Part shown: in pieces, positions 5,950 to 47,755 of the stretch
How the letters are laid out: each line of letters begins with the position of its first letter
Position numbering within the stretch: position 1 is the stretch's first letter
Source of the DNA: Eledone cirrhosa
Taxonomy: Eukaryota
DNA length: 47,755 nucleotides
Assembly: GCA_964016885.1 (NCBI GenBank)
Contig: CAXHJY010000586.1
Span: 1-47,755, forward strand
Reading direction: 5' to 3'
The notes under the pieces: model-generated
Told to the model about the DNA's origin: nothing
What the model saw: only the letters and a program-made list of their open reading frames with translations
Database searches by the model: none
Program-made: the position numbers and the translations under genes

Positions 5950-6510
5950 TTATCCATATAGCTTGAGGAAAGTTCCCGTCCTTAGGTGTCTGCAGGCACC
6001 GAATAAGTCGGTCCTTCTGTTTAATAGCTTGGTTCCGCCATGAAGTATCTCGAGTGTCTCACTAAGACAGAGGTTGCAAATACCAGACCCTCCTCTGTCT
6101 GGGGGAACCTTTCTAACCACGGACCAGACCAGAGAGTGCGGGGTCTTTTCAAGTTTGAGCTTCCAGATCAATTCAGAAAGGACCGTACATTTCCTTTTAT
6201 CTATTCTGTTAAAGGGATGGCGATGGTTATACCACCGATCTTTGAAGCTCGTTGCTGTGGATCCTATGTAGTGGTGCTCCGAGTTAGGGGTTGTGACCTT
6301 GCACCTGTAGACTACGTTTTTCGTCATGAATTCATTACTAAGGGGGCATAGTGATGGGCCTCTGCAATTACATGACTTCTTAAGCCCCACCACATGTACC
6401 GCGTGGTTACCATCACTCGGGGTTGGCTGGGTAGCCTCCGCAATCAGCACAGGGTCGTTGGGAAAATTCACAATTTCCCCTTCTTTAAGATATGATCGGA
6501 CAACGAACAT
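5950..6510 (-). mobile_element. Penelope-like element GIY-YIG fragment
   Basis: ORF contains CNCRGPSLCPLS, NVVYRC..HYIGSTATSFKDRWYNH, CNLCLSE and LLNRRTDLFGACRH. Confidence 0.85.
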
Positions 6511-6911
6511 TTCCGGAAATATAAAGAAGAATTCTTCATTAGAAAGTACAAACCACTACTGAACACAAAAAAATGATATTCCATCTTCAAATAACGGGAT
6601 ACTCCCCACTTTCTCTCCTCTTTAAACAATCGCATATTGATAAAAGAAAAATATTCCAATTGGATGACACTCGCACTTTCAAACATTCGATCGTTGAAGA
6701 GAACAACCCTCGGAGGTACACTAACATTTCATTAATTCCCCGTTCCCCACCCCAATCTATATGTGAACTTAAATACTTGAGTAGATGTGTATACATATGT
6801 GTGTGTAGATGTGAATGTATGTATGTCTGTCTGTAGATGTACATGTATGTGTATACATGTGTGTGTATGTATGTGTGCATATGTGTGTATATATGAATAT
6901 CTATATGTATT

Positions 6912-8399: not shown

Positions 8400-11300
8400 A
8401 GTCAACGCGATAAGTCGCATATTTTGGCGTGGGAGACTATTTATTAAATTTAAGATGAATACTATCTCCGACAATAATGCCACAACTACAGTCAGGTTGA
8501 ATAACTGGTTATTCTTCTAACTATATCTTCTGAAGACACCTTTTATTCGAATTCGTAGAGATATCCGACTAAATACATAATTCATCTTACAAGGATTTGC
8601 TACAAACAGCATGGCTGAACACAACATCACCAAAAAAATTAAGGAAATACCGAAGACAAATAACAAGGAAGGTAATCAAACTTTATTCAGTTGTAACTAC
8701 AGAAGAAAACGAAATTATAAATCGCATTTCTCTTTGAGTTGCGAACTTAATAATGATTTATTTAATTGTTATAAAATGGCAAAAAACAATCCCTCCATTT
8801 GCTATATGAATAGAATGAAGCTACACTGGGACGAAATGCACCCAGAGCTAAATTATTTCACAGCGAAACAATTACGCCAACAAGCGACGTTTGTTGAAAG
8901 TAAAAATAAGATAAATATTATTAATTGTAAGTCCCCCACAACAAACATGTTATCAACAACTCGTGTTACAGTTCGCCAAGCTACTAAACTTCCTAGCAGT
9001 CAGGTCGATCAATGCCTTGAAACAACTATGCCAGTAAGAAACTTGACACCACCTGTACCATCTAAGTCTACCTCGAATGCTGGCAAAAACACTATCGATA
9101 ATAATAATAATCGAAGAAATTTAACACCACGTGTACCATCCGAGTCTACCTCGACTATTGTGGAAAATACTATCGATAATGATAATCAAAAGTATAAACA
9201 ATTGAAAATTTCCCTCAATGAAATCTTCCAGAGAGAAATTAACTCATGTATAAATATCTCTCTTGCTGAACGTGTTAAAACGACAATATTGAATAAAAAA
9301 CCAAATAATGAAATATTACGTGTTATTGACGAAATAGGGATGAATATTTACGACGGATAAAAACCCCAACATTTTGGCAAATCAACGCCTGTTTATATGC
9401 CTTAGCAATAACAGTGAAGCATTATCTTGGTGATAGCAGAGATATTAACACGAACAAAACAGCACCAAAAATACCATCATTTATAACTAAAATAGAAAAA
9501 AAGATTGCTGACCTACGAAAAAACATAGGATATGTGACAATGCTCCTTACATGCAAACAAACACAAAAAACCTCACTCCTCACCAACAAAGAGTGAAAAA
9601 TAAAATAGAGACGATGTTTGGTAACAGTAGAACCAGAACTCTCCAATATAAGCTGATCACCCTCAAACAAGAATTGAGAGCTGTTAGCGAAAAACGCCGA
9701 TACCTGAAGAAGGTAGATGAGAGAAAAGTGCTTAATAAAAGATTCAGACGAAACCAAACATCAGTCTATAGAAATATGAAGGGCAAAATAATAAGTGTCA
9801 CTGAGGCTCCATCCCAGAAAGACAGATTCCTTTTGGAGAAAAATATGGGGTGAAAAGAAGAATTTCAACCAAGATGCAGTGTGGCTAAGAGAAATCCGAA
9901 AGAACTATTGCTCCTACACTACAACAAAAACATACGAAATAAGTGAGGGTACCCTTGAGACTGTGATAGGAAACCTCCAAGATAAGAAAACACCAGGAAG
10001 AGACATGATTGTCGGCTACTGGTACAAAAAACTGATATTCTATCGGAGGTATCTTACTGACCTCTACCAACAAGTTCTTAAGGGAGATACACTTATACCA
10101 GAATGGTTGACATTAGCACAAACATTACTGGTCCCCAAGAACAAAGACACCCACTTGGAAAAAACTACTGACCCATTGCATGCCAGAACCTGATGTATAA
10201 GATGTATACAGCCTACCTGAACCTATTCCTCCCAGATCACTGTGAAAATAATAACATCATCACAGATGAACAAGCAGCTAGAAAGAAAGGGGTTTGGGGA
10301 TGTGCTGAACAACTCCTAATCAACAAAACTGCGATGTCGGAGGTGCGACAACTTAGGAGGAATATGACTACAGTCTGGTTGGACTACAGGAAAGCTTTCG
10401 ATTCTGTTCCCCACTCTTGGATGATAGAGGCCCTCCAACTTGCTAAAGTCCCAGACATTATTGTCAGAGCCATAGAGAGCTGTCTTCTTCTTGGGTTATT
10501 ATCCTAAGGTTAAAGACATAGAGGGAGGACTCTATTTTCACTGATAAAATAAAATATTGCAGGGGTATATTTCAGGGGGACAGTCTCTCTGTGATATTAT
10601 TCATCTTGTCATTAAACCCCTTGTCCTTTCTGTTCAAGAAATGTGAGGGATACATCATTGGCTCACAGGAGGACAGAAATACGAACCTAACCCATAATTT
10701 CTTTGTGGACGATCTGAAACTCTATGCCAAGAACATGGATGGGATGAAGAAAAATCTTGACCTTGTTACAACGTTCTCAAAGGATATAGGAATGGAGTTT
10801 GGCCAAGATAAATGCTCATACATGACTGTAAAGCGGGCAAAAACAACAACCCAATCTAGCAACATTGTCATCAATGGCCTAACTGTTTCACCGATATCTG
10901 ATGAGGACTGCTACAGATACTTGGGGATAGATGAGATAATGGTATCTGTAATAAAGAACGCGTAACCAAGGAATACTACACCCGATTAAGAAAGATCTGG
11001 TCATCGGAACTCTCTGCAGAAAACAAAACAGTGGCTCACAATGTGTTTGCTGTGCCTGTTCTAACACCAACGTTTGGAATACTCAATTGGACGATAGACG
11101 AAATCCGAGCAGTTGATGTTGGAACTCAAAAAATACTGAACACCGGAAACTTCCACATCAGCAGTGACATAAACCGCCTTTACTTGAAGCGTAAGCAGGG
11201 AGGCAGAAGCCTAACATCAGTCCAGACAACATTTGAATGTCGCATCTTATCTCTCCGACAACATCTACGAACCTCGAAGCGTAGAAGCCCGTTTCTCGAG

Positions 11301-12660
11301 CAAGTCTATCTGCATGAAACAGATAAGATCATGAGAGTTGGGAAGGAATTCCTCGAGAGATATTCCCTGTGTGATAATCAAAAACTCACACCCAGGGAAG
11401 TCGCTCAGCAGTATCGCAGTGAATCCATGGATGAAAAACTGCATGCCTATCAGCAAAAAATCATGCATGGATATGTTGCCAGGAAGCTCCAGAGTGAGAG
11501 TAATATAGATAAGGAAAGTACTCTATCTTGGACCAACAACCGCTATATTGGCTCCTACTTTGAAGGATACGCTTTTGCAATCCAGGAACAGGAGATTAGC
11601 ACGAAATACCTGATTCACAAAAGAGATAGGGATGCAGGCAAAACACCTAGATGTGATAACAAGTGAGGAATCTGCAAAACTAACATCGAGGATATCACCC
11701 ATGTCATCAGCAGCTGTCCAAATATGTCATCGCGGTATTATCTACCTATGAGGCTGGTGGATTGGCAGTATCGGTAGAGGGTCGGACGCCATGCTTTCCA
11801 GCATAGTTACGTCCCTTTATGATCTGAGTTCAAATCCCGCCGAGGTTGACTTTGCCTTTCATCCTTACGGGGTCGATAAAATAAAGTACCAGTAATGCAC
11901 TGGGTAATTGCTGGCCTTGTGCCTAAAATAGAAACAATTATCTACCTATGAGGCATGATGTAGTGTCCAAAACACTGTACAATGCAGTTCGTAAAAAAGA
12001 TAGCCCGATAATAAACACATTAAAAGCTACAGCAATGTGGAAGACATCCATGTACATAATATGAAAGAGTAAAAACCCCAATAAAATGTAGGCATAACAG
12101 ACCAGATATTATGATATGGGATAGGGAGAAGAAAGCATGCACAGGAGTAGAAATTAGATGCCCAGCAGATGCCAATATAATATCAAAGATTAGTGAAAAG
12201 GAGAACATTTATGCAGAACTGATGAGAAATCTGCAGATACTCCACCCTTATTACACCTTCAGATTTATGCCTGCAATTATTGGGGTACTGGGATATGTTA
12301 GTAACTGCCAAATCTTGAGAAGCTAGGCTTCACAGGAACAGAAAGAACACAACTAGTTAGGAAATTACAAGTACAATCCATTAATGGAACAGTAAAAATA
12401 TGTAAAACATTCCAAAATATTTGCATCTAATAACTGCATATACACATGTACAGATACAAAGCATATATACATGCACACATACAACTCAAAACGTACACAT
12501 CCACACATACAATAACATCCATATCTACACACGCATGCATACATACATATCTACCTAGTTGATGTTGTGTAAATTTCAATGAGGGAGTCTTGTGTCTATG
12601 TTAGAAACCGACTCTCTCTCTCTATTGGTAAAACTTTGTGAAATTATAAAACCAGAAGAA
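8400..12660 (+). mobile_element. R4/Dong-clade non-LTR retrotransposon (RT + CCHC + restriction-like endonuclease), near full length, frameshifted
   Basis: N-terminal YMNRMKLHWDEMHPE..QLRQQA; RT motifs WLDYRKAFDSVPHSW, RGIFQGDSLS, FFVDDLKLY, YRYLG; FAIQEQ; CCHC knuckle (C..C..EDITHVISSC); RHD and RPDI..E endonuclease motifs. Flanked on both sides by (CATA)n-like tracts. Confidence 0.9.
11755..11936 (+). mobile_element. tRNA-derived SINE inserted into the R4/Dong element, with an 18-bp target-site duplication
   Basis: Pol III A box TGGCAGTATCGG and B box GAGTTCAAATCCC. TSD ATTATCTACCTATGAGGC at 11737-11754 and 11937-11954. Related copies occur elsewhere in the window. Confidence 0.9.
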
Positions 12661-19549: not shown

Positions 19550-19765
19550 TGGAGGCACGTGGCCTAGTGGTAAGAGTGTTGGACTTACTATCATAATGTC
19601 GTGGGTTCGATTCCTGGGTTGCGTGTAGTGTTCTTGAGCAAAACACTTCATTTCACGCTGCTCCAGTATACTCAGCTGGAAATGAGTACCAGCAGTAGGT
19701 GGAGGTTTAAACCTGCGATGGACTGGCGTCCTGTCAGTGGGGAGTCTTGTTCTCTCAGTCGCTTC
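19550..19765 (+). mobile_element. tRNA-derived SINE, second family (CORE/V-like body)
   Basis: A box TGGCCTAGTGG, B box GGTTCGATTCC, then GTGTTCTTGAGCAAAACACTT... and CCTGCGATGGACTGGCGTCCTGTC. Confidence 0.8.
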
Positions 19766-21260
19766 AATCTAAATACTGGATTAATAGAACCTTTCCACAA
19801 AAATAATGAAAATCTTGCCTACATTAGTCACAACTCAAATCACCCCAAATCCATAATTAGATCCATAGCACGTAGTATATCCCTCCGAATATCCCGCTTA
19901 TCCTCAAACCTAGAAATCTTTAACGAGCATGCTGACTATTATAATGCAGCATTACGTAGGGCCGGTCATAAAGATAAACTGCAGTATATAGTGAATAAGG
20001 CCAACGTAAACAATCCTAGTAATTACTACTCCAACCGCTCACATAATAGTAGGAATAACTTGACTAGACATAGGGTTAGACACGTAACACCTGGAGTAAA
20101 CGGCCAAAACACTAATAACGTAAACCCAAGAAACAATAGAAGAAACAGACAAAGAAAATACCTATGGTTCAACCCAATATTCAACTCCTCTATAAAAACT
20201 AGACTGCCCTCTACAATCTTTAAACTAATAGATAAACACTTCCCTATCTCGCATAGATATCACAAAATACTCAATAGATCTACTATAAAACTCTCATTCT
20301 CAACAGCAGCTAACATAGAATCACACATACGCAAGATCAACCACAGAAATATCTCTAGTAAATCAACTGCACCTATATATAAGCACAAACACATCACAAC
20401 ATCACAACCACAAGCGCATACAAACGCGCAGCAGCAAAACCCCATTGGGCATATATCACAACCCACTTATAACAGAGTACTAAACAGAAATGTAAAAGCT
20501 GCACAAAATAGCGCCTAAAACTGTAACTGTCACCTACCAGATAGGTGCCCATTGGCGAACAGATGTCTCGATTCGAGCCTGGTGTACATGTGCACGGTCA
20601 TCTCGGGTAACTCCACCTGGAATTACATAGGATCCACCGCGGGTTCTTTTAAAAAAAGATGGTATGTGCACAGACACTCAATGAAAAACCGTGCACTTAT
20701 GGGTTCCACAACCCTAGCCCAAAAAATATGGGAATTGAAGGACAGCAACACTAACTACAGTATCAACTGGTCGAAGTTGTCGGCTGCTAAAACCTATAGT
20801 ACAGGGATGTCCCACTGCGGGCTATTTGATCTTGAGCTATTGTATATCCTCAAAAATGTAAAAAGGCTACTTAACAATAAGTTAGAAAGATCTATCTTCT
20901 GCAGACATAGAATTGCCACTAAATTCATAAGATTCAAACCTCCGTGAATCGAACCAACATAACATAACTTTAAATTAGGATAACTACTACCCACAGAAAT
21001 ATATTCATTAAGTATACTATATCCTTCACAAGTCTATACCACACAATTGTCTGTAAGTACCTCATCTACCCACAAACTTATTCCTTCTCAGCTGCTGCCA
21101 TCATTTGATCCTAAATCCTAGTTTTTCTCAAATCACTACTACAATGTAACTTTACCTTCCTTTTGCCATAATTACAATTAGCACGCTTATCTCTTTGCAT
21201 GTATGTATATTTTTGTACGAGTGTATATTGATGTGTATGTATGTGTCTATGTACACATGC

Positions 21261-23141: not shown

Positions 23142-26100
23142 ATAATAATTGTTTCTGCTTTTGGCATAAGGCCATCAATTACCCAGTACATTACTCATCA
23201 GCCCGCGTACCTTTTGGGATTACAGGCAGAGTCTGTCGGAAGTCCCCAGATAACAGGAAAGTGACATCTCCCATTGGTTCTTGACAGTCCCTGATGTCTC
23301 TGAGTGATCGGTCTAATGCCTCGAAAGCCGCCGTGTGGGCCATTGTGCATTCGTCCCAAACAATTAGTAGGCAGCGCTTTAACACCAGTGCTTTTCCGGA
23401 AGACTTGCTGATGTTGCACGTGGGTGTCTCAGATGATGCCACGTTGAGAGGTAGACGAAGGCAGAATGTGCCGTCCTGCCACCAGGCAGCAAAGTTGCTG
23501 CAATGCCGGAAGAAGCCACGGCCAATGCTATGTTTCCGTGTTGCCTCACTGCAGCGAGTAAAAGTTTGATTACAAATGTTTTGCCCGTGCCTCCAGGTGC
23601 GTCCAGGAAGAATATACCCGCTCTCCGATTACTGATGGAATCAACGATAATGTTGTAGGCTTGTTTTTGATCCATTAGAAGTTTTGGTTCATTTTCTTTA
23701 ACATACCTTTTGAGTTCGTCGACATCATATGACGTTTCACGTATAATGTCGTTGGAAATGTCAGATGGCGCACCTCGAAGTGTTTGCGGAAGCTCATATT
23801 TCTCCAAGACATCTCCGCCCATTGAAGCCACTCTGTCTTCAGTATCGATCAGAGCTCTGTTATATATAGCGTGTGAAAAGCCGACATCTAAGTTTGGAGA
23901 TTGCAATTGAGCGAGATGCCTATATTCGTCTGCGAAATCATCTTTAAACTTTTGCCATAAAGGGTAAGGATCGCTCAATTCACAGACGTGCAAGAGGATA
24001 GCAAAAAGTGCTCTTAGACTACGGGTTGATTGTGAGATGGCAGCTTCCGTCAAGGTTGCATCCCATTGTGCGTCATCTTCTAAAAGACCACGCCTCAAGC
24101 AGGCTTCTCTGTACTTTCCGCAGGCGTATCCATCGACGGTTCTCAGATGAGTGAAGTTGGTCGGCCCTCATACCTCATGAAGCAGACGTCGCAGGTAGAA
24201 GCATTCGTGTTGGGTAAGGTGGACCGTATAAACTCGCCCAAGCCAATTGTCTAATTTGATGCCTGGATGTCCAACCACCTCTTGTCCTACCTTCCTTTGT
24301 AGCCATTTTGTCCGGTTCCATGTATAGTAAAACGGTATTTCAGAATACAGCAGAGTTCGAGCGAAGTCGTCGTGTTGACAAAGTTTTAAAAAAGCAGTGA
24401 GTGTAGTTTCCTTTGGTGAGATCGCTAGCTGAGCAGCTGTTGCATCGTTGGAATACACCCGTTGACCGTTTTCAAGGTGGACGGCAAGTTGTTTAATGAC
24501 GGGGTGTCGTTGGTGAAGTGAGAAGCTAAAAACGTGCCAAAAGGCTTCATTGTTGCTAATGTATCGGCCTGCTTGGTAGTCAGATACCTCATCTCTATTG
24601 TTTTCATGACGAAGACCAAATACAGCAGCATCCGATCCGTTGTTTACGTACTTACAAACGTATTTAATTGATTTTACTGAGTTGCAAAATTCGACGTCTA
24701 TATGGGCGTTGAATGCTTTCAAGAGGAGGGGGCAATATGGCACTATCCAGCTGTTATCGATTTCGCGTTCACCAACTTTTGCTGTAAACCCACCGTCTTC
24801 AGGTCTCCTGTGCCTACACAACGGATATCCGTCACCGCCAGTCTATGTTTCCTGTAAAAACGGCCCGGGATATCGTTTTATACACTTTCCGTCGTGTATG
24901 CACGGGGACTTCATATTGAGTCCATGTCGGCAAGGACCATGGACCATGTTTGATGTGACTATAGAGGTCCTTGCTAATCGACGGATCAGGTAGTTCGGCA
25001 GAAATGAATTTGTCGATGTAGTTTGAACTGATTTTGTAACCAACCAAATCAAGATATGGGCATGCGGCAGCCCTCGTTTCTGCCATTCAACCGTGTACAT
25101 GTCGCACCTGACAGGCCCCAAAACCTGTCCTTTCTTTAATAAATCCATTAATTTGGATAATTTCAGGCGAAACACTCTTGCTATGAAATCGTGCCACTGT
25201 CTTGGCGCTTGACCGTCGAAAAGTTCGTTTGTAATCTCCTTCCACTTGGGATTGCATGTAAATGTTATGAAAAGGTCGGGGCTCCCATAATGTCGTACGT
25301 AAGTCATGGCGTCCTGAGTCCTCTCGTGCATGTATCGGGGTCCCCCTGTGAACGTTGAAGGCAAAATACACAATTGCCCTAAATTGTCTGGGGATACATC
25401 GTTGTTAATTCCATCGCGTAGATGAATGTAGCATTCAGATCGAAGTTTCTTTTGATTTAATTTAATGAACCATAATCTCTCGGACTCCATTTTAACGGCA
25501 ATATCAAAAGGTCCCGAGAACGGTGTAGACGGTTGAATGAATTCTCCCTTACCATAAATCGGAAAGTGTAAAAATCCATGGAGGTGACAGTTTTGATAAG
25601 ATGTGCCTCACCATTGTCTGCCGAATGTTGAGGAATGCCGAAATTGTATCCGTCCTCGCCGTTGACAAATAGCAATGGATACTGGAGTGCATCGTAGGAC
25701 CTGTGTGTCTCATTGATACGCTGTAATGTGCTGTCTCGGTGCTGTTCACCACAAATAACCGCAGCAATCTCATTATATCTTGGTGCGTTGAACCGACCAG
25801 CGTGTTCTCCAGATGGCCTTCGGTCAGCATGTATGACCACACTAAAGTTTTGGTCGGTGGCTGTTTCCAAAGCGTACTTGAAATAGCTGGTTTTGTCATG
25901 AAGCATTTCTTGAACTTTTATTATGGTTCCAATGTTAGTTTCGGACGAAATAGAGTTTCGCATGTCTGCCTGCTCCTGATAGTTTCCAACGAAGTATAAC
26001 TGAAGAAATAGGGGATCCTTTTCTGCCAGAGGCTGAATAGACCCAATCAAGTGGTAGATCTGCCGCTGGACCTTGAAAGTTGGCATGAACCCACGTTCCA

Positions 26101-26469
26101 AGGTAAGCTTTGCTCCGAAGGATGTCATCTGAAACGCGGAATTGTAGCGGCGGATATTACGCAGAAACTTCGATGATTCCTCCGTCGTGTCTGTCAATAG
26201 GAGTTAGTCTAACTTTACCGTTTGAACAGTACATTCCATCTCTCTCCTCTGGCCACATTTTCGTACGACAAAACTGGCAAGTAGAGGTCATTTCCCCAAT
26301 TTGAATATCTGCATGGACGGCGCAGTCGGGGGGAAGGGTCGTAGTTAAAGGCCTTCAACAACCATCGTGAATTGCAAGTCCTAGAAATACCACGTAACGA
26401 TGATCGCCGCTGTTCACTTTGAAGAAGTCGACCACGTCATTGCTCTATGGTTTCAGTATTTCGTTCAGC

Positions 26470-43500: not shown

Positions 43501-43920
43501 TACCTATCTTCCGGCTTCTCTAGAGAATCGTGAAAGCACATATCGTTATATGCTTTTTCTATGAAAATTAGTAGTGGGCAGACCAATTTGCATAGAGCGT
43601 GAGTACGTACCGGTTCAACGGAGACGATAAAAACAAATAACGAAACGAAATTAAATTTCGTTTCGTTTGTAACTCACTTTTGTATGACTGACGCTTAAAC
43701 AATTAAGTTAAAAATGTACATCCACATATGTATACTGAAATACTAGTATGCATATGAATACACACACGTGTACATATGTAGATGTACCGAGTTTTCACTG
43801 GTCACTTTACTGTGAGTGTCCAGCTATTCTGTATGTAGACACACAGACAAACCGGTTCTTAGAGTCATACTGGTTTTTGAGGAAACACCTTTCCTCTATT
43901 CTCCAGAAAGCCAGACAAGG

Positions 43921-43965
43921 AATATTGGACTAGTTTCGATGTTGTTACATCTCATCAGCAATATT
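43921..43965 (-). ncRNA. Hammerhead ribozyme, copy 2
   Basis: Identical to 43456-43500. Confidence 0.93.
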
Positions 43966-44385
43966 TACCTATCTTCCGGCTTCTCTAGAGAATCGTGAAA
44001 GCACATATCGTTATATGCTTTTTCTATGAAAATTAGTAGTGGGCAGACCAATTTGCATAGAGCGTGAGTACGTACCGGTTCAACGGAGACGATAAAAACA
44101 AATAACGAAACGAAATTAAATTTCGTTTCGTTTGTAACTCACTTTTGTATGACTGACGCTTAAACAATTAAGTTAAAAATGTACATCCACATATGTATAC
44201 TGAAATACTAGTATGCATATGAATACACACACGTGTACATATGTAGATGTACCGAGTTTTCACTGGTCACTTTACTGTGAGTGTCCAGCTATTCTGTATG
44301 TAGACACACAGACAAACCGGTTCTTAGAGTCATACTGGTTTTTGAGGAAACACCTTTCCTCTATTCTCCAGAAAGCCAGACAAGG

Positions 44386-44430
44386 AATATTGGACTAGTT
44401 TCGATGTTGTTACATCTCATCAGCAATATT
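44386..44430 (-). ncRNA. Hammerhead ribozyme, copy 3
   Basis: Identical to 43456-43500. Confidence 0.93.
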
Positions 44431-44849
44431 TACCTATCTTCCGGCTTCTCTAGAGAATCGTGAAAGCACATATCGTTATATGCTTTTTCTATGAAAATTA
44501 GTAGTGGGCAGACACATTTGCATAGAGCGTGAGTACGTACCGGTTCAACGGAGACGATAAAAACAAATAACGAAACGAAATTAAATTTCGTTTCGTTTGT
44601 AACTCACTTTTGTATGACTGACGCTTAAACAATTAAGTTAAAAATGTACATCCACATATGTATACTGAAATACTAGTATGCATATGAATACACACACGTG
44701 TACATATGTAGATTACCGAGTTTTCACTGGTCACTTTACTGTGAGTGTCCAGCTATTCTGTATGTAGACACACAGACAAACCGGTTCTTAGAGTCATACT
44801 GGTTTTTGAGGAAACACCTTTCCTCTATTCTCCAGAAAGCCAGACAAGG

Positions 44850-44894
44850 AATATTGGACTAGTTTCGATGTTGTTACATCTCATCAGCAATATT
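44850..44894 (-). ncRNA. Hammerhead ribozyme, copy 4
   Basis: Identical to 43456-43500. Confidence 0.93.
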
Positions 44895-45314
44895 TACCTA
44901 TCTTCCGGCTTCTCTAGAGAATCGTGAAAGCACATATCGTTATATGCTTTTTCTATGAAAATTAGTAGTGGGCAGACCAATTTGCATAGAGCGTGAGTAC
45001 GTACCGGTTCAACGGAGACGATAAAAACAAATAACGAAACGAAATTAAATTTCGTTTCGTTTGTAACTCACTTTTGTATGACTGACGCTTAAACAATTAA
45101 ATTAAAAATGTACATCCACATATGTATACTGAAATACTAGTATGCATATGAATACACACACGTGTACATATGTAGATGTACCGAGTTTTCACTGGTCACT
45201 TTACTGTGAGTGTCCAGCTATTCTGTATGTAGACACACAGACAAACCGGTTCTTAGAGTCATACTGGTTTTTGAGGAAACACCTTTCCTCTATTCTCCAG
45301 AAAGCCAGACAAGG

Positions 45315-45359
45315 AATATTGGACTAGTTTCGATGTTGTTACATCTCATCAGCAATATT
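45315..45359 (-). ncRNA. Hammerhead ribozyme, copy 5
   Basis: Identical to 43456-43500. Confidence 0.93.
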
Positions 45360-45779
45360 TACCTATCTTCCGGCTTCTCTAGAGAATCGTGAAAGCATAT
45401 ATCGTTATATGCTTTTTCTATGAAAATTAGTAGTGGGCAGACCAATTTGCATAGAGCGTGAGTACGTACCGGTTCAACGGAGACGATAAAAACAAATAAC
45501 GAAACGAAATTAAATTTCGTTTCGTTTGTAACTCACTTTTGTATGACTGACGCTTAAACAATTAAGTTAAAAATGTACATCCACATATGTATACTGAAAT
45601 ACTAGTATGCATATGAATACACACACGTGTACATATGTAGATGTACCGAGTTTTCACTGGTCACTTTACTGTGAGTGTCCAGCTATTCTGTATGTAGACA
45701 CACAGACAAACCGGTTCTTAGAGTCATACTGGTTTTTGAGGAAACACCTTTCCTCTATTCTCCAGAAAGCCAGACAAGG

Positions 45780-45824
45780 AATATTGGACTAGTTTCGATG
45801 TTGTTACATCTCATCAGCAATATT
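45780..45824 (-). ncRNA. Hammerhead ribozyme, copy 6
   Basis: Identical to 43456-43500. Confidence 0.93.
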
Positions 45825-46244
45825 TACCTATCTTCCGGCTTCTCTAGAGAATCGTGAAAGCACATATCGTTATATGCTTTTTCTATGAAAATTAGTAGTG
45901 GGCAGACCAATTTGCATAGAGCGTGAGTACGTACCGGTTCAACGGAGACGATAAAAACAAATAACGAAACGAAATTAAATTTCGTTTCGTTTGTAACTCA
46001 CTTTTGTATGACTGACGCTTAAACAATTAAGTTAAAAATGTACATCCACATATGTATACTGAAATACTAGTATGCATATGAATACACACACGTGTACATA
46101 TGTAGATGTACCGAGTTTTCACTGGTCACTTTACTGTGAGTGTCCAGCTATTCTGTATGTAGACACACAGACAAACCGGTTCTTAGAGTCATACTGGTTT
46201 TTGAGGAAACACCTTTCCTCTATTCTCCAGAAAGCCAGACAAGG

Positions 46245-46289
46245 AATATTGGACTAGTTTCGATGTTGTTACATCTCATCAGCAATATT
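46245..46289 (-). ncRNA. Hammerhead ribozyme, copy 7
   Basis: Identical to 43456-43500. Confidence 0.93.
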
Positions 46290-46709
46290 TACCTATCTTC
46301 CGGCTTCTCTAGAGAATCGTGAAAGCACATATCGTTATATGCTTTTTCTATGAAAATTAGTAGTGGGCAGACCAATTTGCATAGAGCGTGAGTACGTACC
46401 GGTTCAACGGAGACGATAAAAACAAATAACGAAACGAAATTAAATTTCGTTTCGTTTGTAACTCACTTTTGTATGACTGACGCTTAAACAATTAAGTTAA
46501 AAATGTACATCCACATATGTATACTGAAATACTAGTATGCATATGAATACACACACGTGTACATATGTAGATGTACCGAGTTTTCACTGGTCACTTTACT
46601 GTGAGTGTCCAGCTATTCTGTATGTAGACACACAGACAAACCGGTTCTTAGAGTCATACTGGTTTTTGAGGAAACACCTTTCCTCTATTCTCCAGAAAGC
46701 CAGACAAGG

Positions 46710-46754
46710 AATATTGGACTAGTTTCGATGTTGTTACATCTCATCAGCAATATT
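46710..46754 (-). ncRNA. Hammerhead ribozyme, copy 8
   Basis: Identical to 43456-43500. Confidence 0.93.
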
Positions 46755-47139
46755 TACCTATCTTCCGGCTTCTCTAGAGAATCGTGAAAGCACATATCGT
46801 TATATGCTTTTTCTATGAAAATTAGTAGTGGGCAGACCAATTTGCATAGAGCGTGAGTACGTACCGGTTCAACGGAGACGATAAAAACAAATAACGAAAC
46901 GAAATTAAATTTCGTTTCGTTTGTAACTCACTTTTGTATGACTGACGCTTAAACAATTAAGTTAAAAATGTACATCCACATATGTATACTGAAATACTAG
47001 TATGCATATGAATACACACACGTGTACATATGTAGATGTACCGAGTTTTCACTGGTCACTTTACTGTGAGTGTCCAGCTATTCTGTATGTAGACACACAG
47101 ACAAACCGGTTCTTAGAGTCATACTGGTTTTTGAGGAAA

Positions 47140-47755
47140 ATCCACCGAAACTCGGCCATTTCGGACCATACCAAAATCAACATACTGATTGCGGATTTGG
47201 TACGGGTGATGAGAAATGTGTCCCGCATGTGCAACCCCGAAGAACTAGAGAGACACATACAACACTTCATCCACCGTATGCAGTTCTCTGGCTACAATCA
47301 GAGAGATAGAATCAGAGTGTATAAAGGAGCCAGAACCAAATGGGAAAAAATGGTAAATAATGACATAAATGGGACCTGCCCCTTGTATAGGAGCAAATTT
47401 TGGAATAGAATAGAAAGAACTAAGAACAAGGCCAATAGAATAAACTCATGGTATGATAGCAATAAATACCAGAGTGTTATGTTCATCAATACAACCCCTA
47501 GAGGCGAACTAGCCTACAAATTTAGAAGGGCCCTAAAGAAACATAATCTCAATATTAAGATAGTAGAAAGACCTGGTACCTCCGTAAAAACACTTATTAG
47601 CAAGACATACCCGTTCCAAAGACCCTCATGTATAGATAAGAAATGTATAACCTGTAAAATAAGCCCCCATATTAACTGTAAAACTAGAAATGTAGTATAT
47701 AGCATAAGATGTACTGAGGGACAATGTAGAAACAAAAATGTAGTGTACATAGGTG
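47140..47755 (+). mobile_element. Penelope-like element, 5'-truncated, with an open frame running off the window (RT thumb, Cys linker, start of GIY-YIG)
   Basis: Manual translation from 47140: IHRNSAISDHTKINILIADLVRVMRNVSRMC..RMQFSGY..GTCPLYR..SWY..SVMFINTTPRGELA..IVERPG..CIDKKCITC..NCKTRNVVYSIRC..C..VYIG, with no stop. Absent from the ORF track because it does not terminate in the window. Confidence 0.8.

Follow-up and report, generated by a model that had tools for sequence, protein, structure and literature searches.

Purified Penelope-like element (PLE) protein cuts and extends both DNA strands, initiates synthesis at two internal positions, one at either edge of the genomic tail, and is predicted to act as a dimer (PMC11167929). 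Inserted PLEs carry the tail at one end and an inverted 5' copy (PMC8557442, PMC3846280), a pattern that Frangieh et al. attribute to these two RT start sites (PMC11167929). In the EN+ PLEs described to date (Frangieh 2024, PMC11167929; Craig 2021, PMC8557442; Arkhipova 2013, PMC3846280), the paired internal starts and one-sided tail are accompanied by head-to-head inverted copies, AT-rich or (TA)n targets and mobilisation in trans. The insertions described here share all of these features, with longer tails (56 nt in the element named PLE1 and ~70 nt in a retrozyme, versus 30-40 nt in EN+ PLEs). They differ in that a non-coding repeat with no relation to the pLTR bears the signature, and in that the arms of a small number of insertions derive from two RNAs. 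In Arkhipova 2013, inversions are explained by self-priming on an antisense template, and cross-mobilisation between families was not seen.

The mobilisation of retrozymes by PLEs is a standing hypothesis based on co-occurrence and shared ribozymes (Cervera & de la Peña 2020, PMC7229834). The available text of that study gives no insertion anatomy for metazoan non-LTR retrozymes, whereas the present family has two fixed priming sites, a tail at one side only, inverted arms and insertion in (TA)n. The unit length of 465 bp lies just above the range of 150-450 given there and inside the range of 51-972 given by Li, Clavereau & Pollet 2026 (10.64898/2026.07.22.740005). The latter preprint also concerns non-autonomous PLE-linked hammerhead repeats, and one of nine predicted elements was found to cleave. 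Its repeats come from frogs and show pLTR homology, whereas the present unit has no homology to PLE1. Local expansion is attributed there to unequal crossover, whereas multi-unit arms flanking an inversion point here to expansion during insertion.

In L1 twin priming and synchronous bridges, as proposed here, both DNA ends prime, the cDNAs are joined head-to-head and cDNAs of two RNAs can be joined (10.1101/2024.08.27.596794, PMC11702581). L1 uses poly(A) and a variable internal site and its arms are mostly non-overlapping, whereas here the sites are fixed and the arms overlap by several units. A literature search, with subscription papers and supplements outside its scope, returned no PLE-type two-site ends in a retrozyme and no mixed retrozyme-PLE arms. 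The window analysed here is the entire 47,755-nt contig C613 of the 3.0-Gb Eledone cirrhosa assembly, and the sequence ends at 47755. It is judged to contain a real, very recent mixed-arm structure belonging to a retrozyme family with a clear PLE signature, in which mixed arms are rare.

The array, its junction and the PLE1 arm

An array of 8.56 head-to-tail 465-bp units (37% GC) occupies 43162..47139, and its ribozyme-sense strand is the minus strand. A search for tandem repeats in the window reports it with a period of 465, 8.6 copies and 99% matches (43162-47139). Five of the eight full units are identical, and the remaining ones carry two substitutions, a 1-nt deletion and two substitutions, respectively; the last, partial unit is 259 nt long. 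Eight hammerhead cores were found on the minus strand by a motif scan, one in each full unit. The type I hammerhead of the last full unit (46710..46754, minus strand), identified by motif scan and local fold and recurring as the same motif in all eight, consists of a 7-bp stem I, CUGAUGA, a 5-bp stem II, GAAA and a short palindromic helix III. Cleavage is predicted after GUC at 46717. Metazoan hammerheads of this layout, with a short palindromic helix III, have been described as functioning in dimeric form (PMC4209133). Rfam returned no match for the hammerhead at the gathering score, and the call is therefore based on the motif scan, the local fold and stem variation. In the commonest stem II variant among the sampled arrays, both partners of one pair are changed (34 arrays, a large subfamily), which probably reflects one inherited event; one sampled array has a mismatch at that pair.

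The unit folds with a z of -9.4 relative to 100 shuffles. The retrozyme "tail" (43162..43236, minus strand) extends from site A (phase 1, the array end at (TA)n) to site B (phase 69-76) and contains a 13-bp hairpin. No frame of 120 codons is present within the array except by read-through at the junction. The PLE frame extends open for 49 codons into the array (46993-47139) and includes in-frame ATGs, probably by chance. The presence of one hammerhead per unit, the small, AT-rich, self-paired and ORF-less monomer and the dispersed recent copies identify the unit as a putative non-LTR retrozyme, for which self-cleavage and a circular form are predicted.

The head-to-head junction lies at 47139..47140, where phase 259 of the unit is joined to position 2906 of the 4343-nt PLE1 reference copy. 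It is blunt, with no filler and no microhomology on either side. An earlier note on this DNA had placed the GAGGAAA end of the last unit at 47138 with a PLE frame beginning at 47140; the direct fusion at 47140 stands, but the unit ends at 47139 and the spacer is thus zero. Other statements of that note were borne out. The PLE frame beginning at 47140 is open to the window end and contains the thumb, a Cys linker and the GIY-YIG motif. The ribozymes face away from the PLE, with the hammerhead cores on the minus strand and PLE1 on the plus strand. The left end of the array adjoins a short (TA)n run (43144..43163). PLE1 is also unlike the other PLEs of the window, which contain the CxCX5C linker and DKT that PLE1 lacks and that have been described for Hydra clade PLEs. 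These Hydra-type fragments, with CxCX5C linker and DKT motif, are located at 360-2261, 5950-6555 and 19574-20947.

The 5'-truncated PLE1 arm (47140..47755, plus strand) belongs to a Penelope-like element with a C-terminal GIY-YIG and a CX4CX2C linker, and runs off the end of the contig. All 616 bp match, at 100% identity, a genomic copy that has the RT upstream and the endonuclease downstream in frame. Complete copies of PLE1 encode a single ORF with RT and C-terminal GIY-YIG, and the full-length copy at L053 has a 1263-codon stop-to-stop frame. The GIY-YIG and CCHH of PLE1 were taken from the translation, with a motif spacing that we assume to apply. The Pfam RVT_1 match to PLE1 is weak (E 3e-4, below Pfam's cut-off), and a Pfam search of six frames at E 0.01 returned nothing. 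The closest named homologue is a hypothetical protein of Octopus vulgaris (67%), among 107 homologues that are nearly all unnamed. PLE1 has a pLTR with its own hammerhead, a tail at one end and an inverted 5' copy, and its linker fits the CX2-5CxxC of the Neptune/Nematis type as defined in PMC8557442.

The interval 33090-42598 of the window is collinear with C11:17,683,392-17,693,944 (95-99.5%), and the matching C11 site has the same (TA)n run with neither arm present. No PLE1 match was found in C11:17,654,000-17,722,400, for which 28 kb was fetched rightwards of the site. We take the C11 site to be the other allele, with a paralogue as a possible alternative. A young repeat fragment (42599..43118, minus strand), probably a LINE-like 3' end at (TA)n, lies ~45 bp left of the array; it is 97-100% identical to many copies (1095 candidates) and is missing from the C11 site.

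Elsewhere in the window, minus-strand frames at 30927-32421 resemble what we take to be a fucosyltransferase-type glycosyltransferase. This region has about ten copies at 94-95%, ~60 kb apart, on C12, and the right part of the window matches C11. Broken frames at 23191-26203 are presumably from a Helitron-like Rep/helicase, and those at 9795-11666 and 28393-30858 are, from their translations, presumably non-LTR RT/REL-like.

Two-ended insertions of the retrozyme and the PLEs

The genome contains 1,664 exact matches to (TA)n followed by phase 1 of the unit (site A). The first 100 of these ends, all on C1 and including two apparent duplicate pairs, were sampled. Seventy-seven insertions lead to site B and (TA)n, 13 directly to (TA)n and three to (TA)n via a short filler; three run into other elements and four are unresolved. 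Site B is reached through an inverted arm that is at times only a few bases long and is sizeable in 69 of the 100 arrays. Among the aligned second arms with a visible end, 66 of 68 stop at phase 69-76 and none of the 68 at phase 1. Both fixed ends, ~70 nt apart, are 3' ends of the ribozyme-sense strand, and the inner junctions are variable. Arms longer than one unit are common (45/69 A arms and 42/69 B arms), and some exceed 15 units. Within an insertion, the two arms are nearly always of one sequence type. Over 56 pairs, the median difference between partner arms is 0.5%, and that from other arrays is 5.5%. The partner arm is the outright nearest sequence in only 30 of these pairs, which leaves derivation from one RNA molecule unproven. 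The sample is conditioned on site A, so that B+B pairs are possible. Two site-B ends, G000:C1:141,066,903 and 141,067,633, face outwards 730 bp apart and may form such a pair.

The PLEs of this genome show the corresponding ends. PLE1 has 11,198 exact site-A ends, and at least 17 of the 40 insertions sampled from these have an inverted arm that ends at site B, 56 nt upstream, the count being a minimum because the strict script misses a few pairs visible in the alignments. A second element, PLE2 (2263 candidates), has its own fixed ends at (TA)n, ~37 nt apart (L137-L156). CG follows site A in both PLE1 and the retrozyme. The tails of these two share a 10-mer, a length reached by 63 of 2000 shuffles, whereas two other tails give 6-mers; this similarity is marginal and was noticed before being tested.

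The retrozyme thus carries the PLE insertion signature of two fixed ends, a one-sided tail, an inverted arm and the same target. Penelope enzymes are therefore likely to spread these ribozyme repeats, and we consider it highly probable that the family is mobilised by PLE-type enzymes. The earlier note had expected the array to be linked to its mobilising enzyme by one of two routes, amplification of the PLE's own pLTR or a template switch onto a circular RNA; the tie to Penelope-type machinery is retained, but neither route is.

Other structures were observed among the 293 loci examined. A 66-nt GC-rich filler between retrozyme arms is present at L162 (oriented 595-660), with no other copy among these loci. 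A 613-bp tandem family (L192, L194, L204, L224, L287 and L292) has a fixed end and no simple hammerhead core, and is possibly a second non-autonomous family on the same machinery. At L192 (C1 151.82 Mb), two copies of the 613-bp family are fused directly to a retrozyme arm.

Pieces of both the unit and PLE1 were detected in 8/8 public runs (six organism labels, six studies), to which little weight is given; no RNA run was listed among the public runs. Runs X5, X6, X7, X9 and X11, with five further organism labels, contain pieces of both, many of them 95-99% identical, as might result from close kinship or horizontal spread. None of the pieces listed for the eight runs bridges the junction. Since the runs depart from the window sequence at near-fixed bases, and contigs record presence only, the missing bridge is no evidence either way.

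Array-PLE fusions and their possible origins

Pairing of an array with PLE1 was found in 0/100 sampled arrays and 0/40 sampled PLE1 arms. Two further direct fusions, L274 and L284, were found outside the sample, with the same polarity and ending at PLE1 site B and (TA)n. L274 is complete and consists of (TA)n, retrozyme site A, an inverted PLE1 piece of 171 bp joined directly to the array, PLE1 site B and (TA)n. In L284, at least 4.6 units are joined to a PLE1 arm that ends at site B, and the left end is unseen. Both are chance finds, and L284 lies beside a copy chosen for its youth. The earlier note had named a lack of association between other arrays and this PLE as part of what would refute its reading, and this is half borne out: no array of the 100 pairs with PLE1, but L274 and L284 are fused to it and the C11 site lacks both arms. 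A query with the junction itself returned no second copy among the 40 of 2335 candidates that were scored.

A scan of the 293 loci (1.88 Mb, overlapping) gave three PLE1 fusions (the window, L274 and L284) and two PLE2 fusions. The latter, L091 and L114, make up 2/100 of the unbiased sample, and PLE1 is therefore not singled out as the mover. PLE1 is indicated as the partner enzyme by three fusions and the marginal 10-mer, and PLE2 by two fusions in the unbiased sample; all fusion rates derive from samples. Two other candidates were rejected. A hybrid at C1 4.76 Mb (L078), suggested by its coordinates, is two insertions 1.4 kb apart, and L168 has a neighbour across (TA)n instead of a fusion.

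The array of the window is one arm of a two-armed insertion, and its second arm was likely copied from PLE1 RNA. For the junction we prefer a single co-primed event of two RNAs at one break, and consider the chances of this to be about even. The main competing explanation, which we regard as rather unlikely, is that two successive insertions occurred in the same (TA)n, the later cDNA being joined into the earlier insertion with deletion of the intervening part. The surroundings are compatible with such a history, since a (TA)n run is shared by an array and a PLE1 end in 4/100 arrays and a third young element lies 45 bp away, on this haplotype only. Fusion of unrelated neighbours does occur in this genome. 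Three of 40 PLE1 arms (L201, L209 and L211) are fused to RTE-like LINE fragments that lack their 5' part and end in (GAT)n followed by (TA)n, which makes successive insertion with deletion a live route, and several PLE1 arms end in anonymous flank. The RTE-like label is our assumption from a translated motif and the (GAT)n end. In line with this route, L091 and L114 retain part of an inverted retrozyme arm ahead of PLE2, and one of them ends at the PLE2 tail site.

The three PLE1 fusions show a different picture. None contains a remnant of the inverted retrozyme arm that is sizeable in most sampled arrays, and none of the 96 resolved arrays runs into RTE. All four visible ends in the PLE1 fusions are of the same kind, with the array at A and PLE1 at B. 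The ages of the two arms also agree in rank in all three, with a possible selection bias for the two young ones. Both arms are young in the window and in L284, where units are 0-0.2% apart and PLE1 is 0-0.2% from the nearest copy, and both are old in L274, with units at 1.6% (older than 42/45 arrays) and PLE1 at 7.3% (beyond all 16 background PLE1 arms).

A chimera of the assembly or of reads, or a bridge between insertions at different loci of the kind known from synchronous L1 (10.1101/2024.08.27.596794), is improbable. In its favour, C613 is short and unplaced and ends 616 bp past the junction. Collinearity with C11 is missing from its leftmost 33 kb, copies on C12 match 30930-31750 at 94-95%, and a search for a second copy of the C11 right flank found none. 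A copy on C28 has the same sequence as the PLE piece, even at a base present at 15 places only. Against these points, the same structure is found inside chromosome-scale contigs (L274, which is complete, and L284), the polarity and site-A start obey the rule of the family, and the neighbours of the C28 copy share only repeats with the window. The possibility that the PLE arm is simply the C28 copy was considered; the shared base occurs at 15 places, yet the 12 others fetched are 83-99.7% identical to the PLE piece and none is 100% identical.

The template switch put forward in the earlier note, in which one RT copied PLE RNA and then switched onto a circle, has very little probability. Same-polarity switches may exist, as suggested by the PLE1 piece of 171 bp that follows the array in L274 and the retrozyme pieces before PLE2 in L091 and L114. 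In the window, however, the two parts have opposite polarity, so that an antisense circle would be needed, and the far end of the array is the family's own priming site A at (TA)n, from which it follows that the array was primed separately from the left. Amplification of PLE1's own pLTR into the array, the other route of the earlier note, can practically be dismissed (descent from the pLTR of some other, unsampled PLE may still apply), since the 3' repeat beyond the PLE1 GIY-YIG stop and its hammerhead differ from the unit, BLAST of the unit against full-length PLE1 gave no significant match (best E 0.16), and the 3' regions of 20 PLE2 copies match the unit only in the fused array itself and in two weak simple-sequence matches upstream, although the idea has a precedent in Xenopus, where 24/57 retrozyme families match TEs, mostly PLE termini (10.64898/2026.07.22.740005), and the marginal 10-mer is common to the tails.

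Proposed mechanism and significance

We infer that retrozyme insertions of this family arise from two cDNAs, one started at each end of a single cut, and that both are usually copied from the same circular or multimeric RNA. A dimer of the PLE RT/endonuclease would cut both (TA)n strands and start a cDNA from each end at an internal site, as a rule using a single RNA. Where the template is a circular or multimeric retrozyme RNA, each RT would continue through several units, and the two cDNA ends would then be joined head-to-head. In the co-primed reading of the window, priming at retrozyme site A on the left would be followed by synthesis of 8.56 units, and the right end would be primed on PLE1 RNA, predicted at site B ~770 nt past the contig end. 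More specifically, a PLE1 dimer, with one RNA per subunit or with hand-over of the RNA, may use a mimicked two-site tail to read an unrelated ribozyme circle, rolling round it from both ends of one cut; this version is put forward tentatively and is held to be somewhat more doubtful than even.

The enzyme that moves animal retrozymes and the origin of the inverted copies and one-sided tail of PLEs are both stated as open in the available literature. If the interpretation is correct, mixed-arm insertions would directly record which enzyme moves a retrozyme, and the inverted copy and tail of PLEs would stem from two cDNAs with separate priming, not from foldback. If the window junction was co-primed, it would show that different RNAs can serve the two ends of a single cut. 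The genome offers more than 1000 young retrozyme insertions with the PLE signature and an empty site for a very recent one. It also provides a candidate pair, an intact PLE1 frame and a 465-nt RNA with two predicted start sites, which fits the existing in vitro assay.
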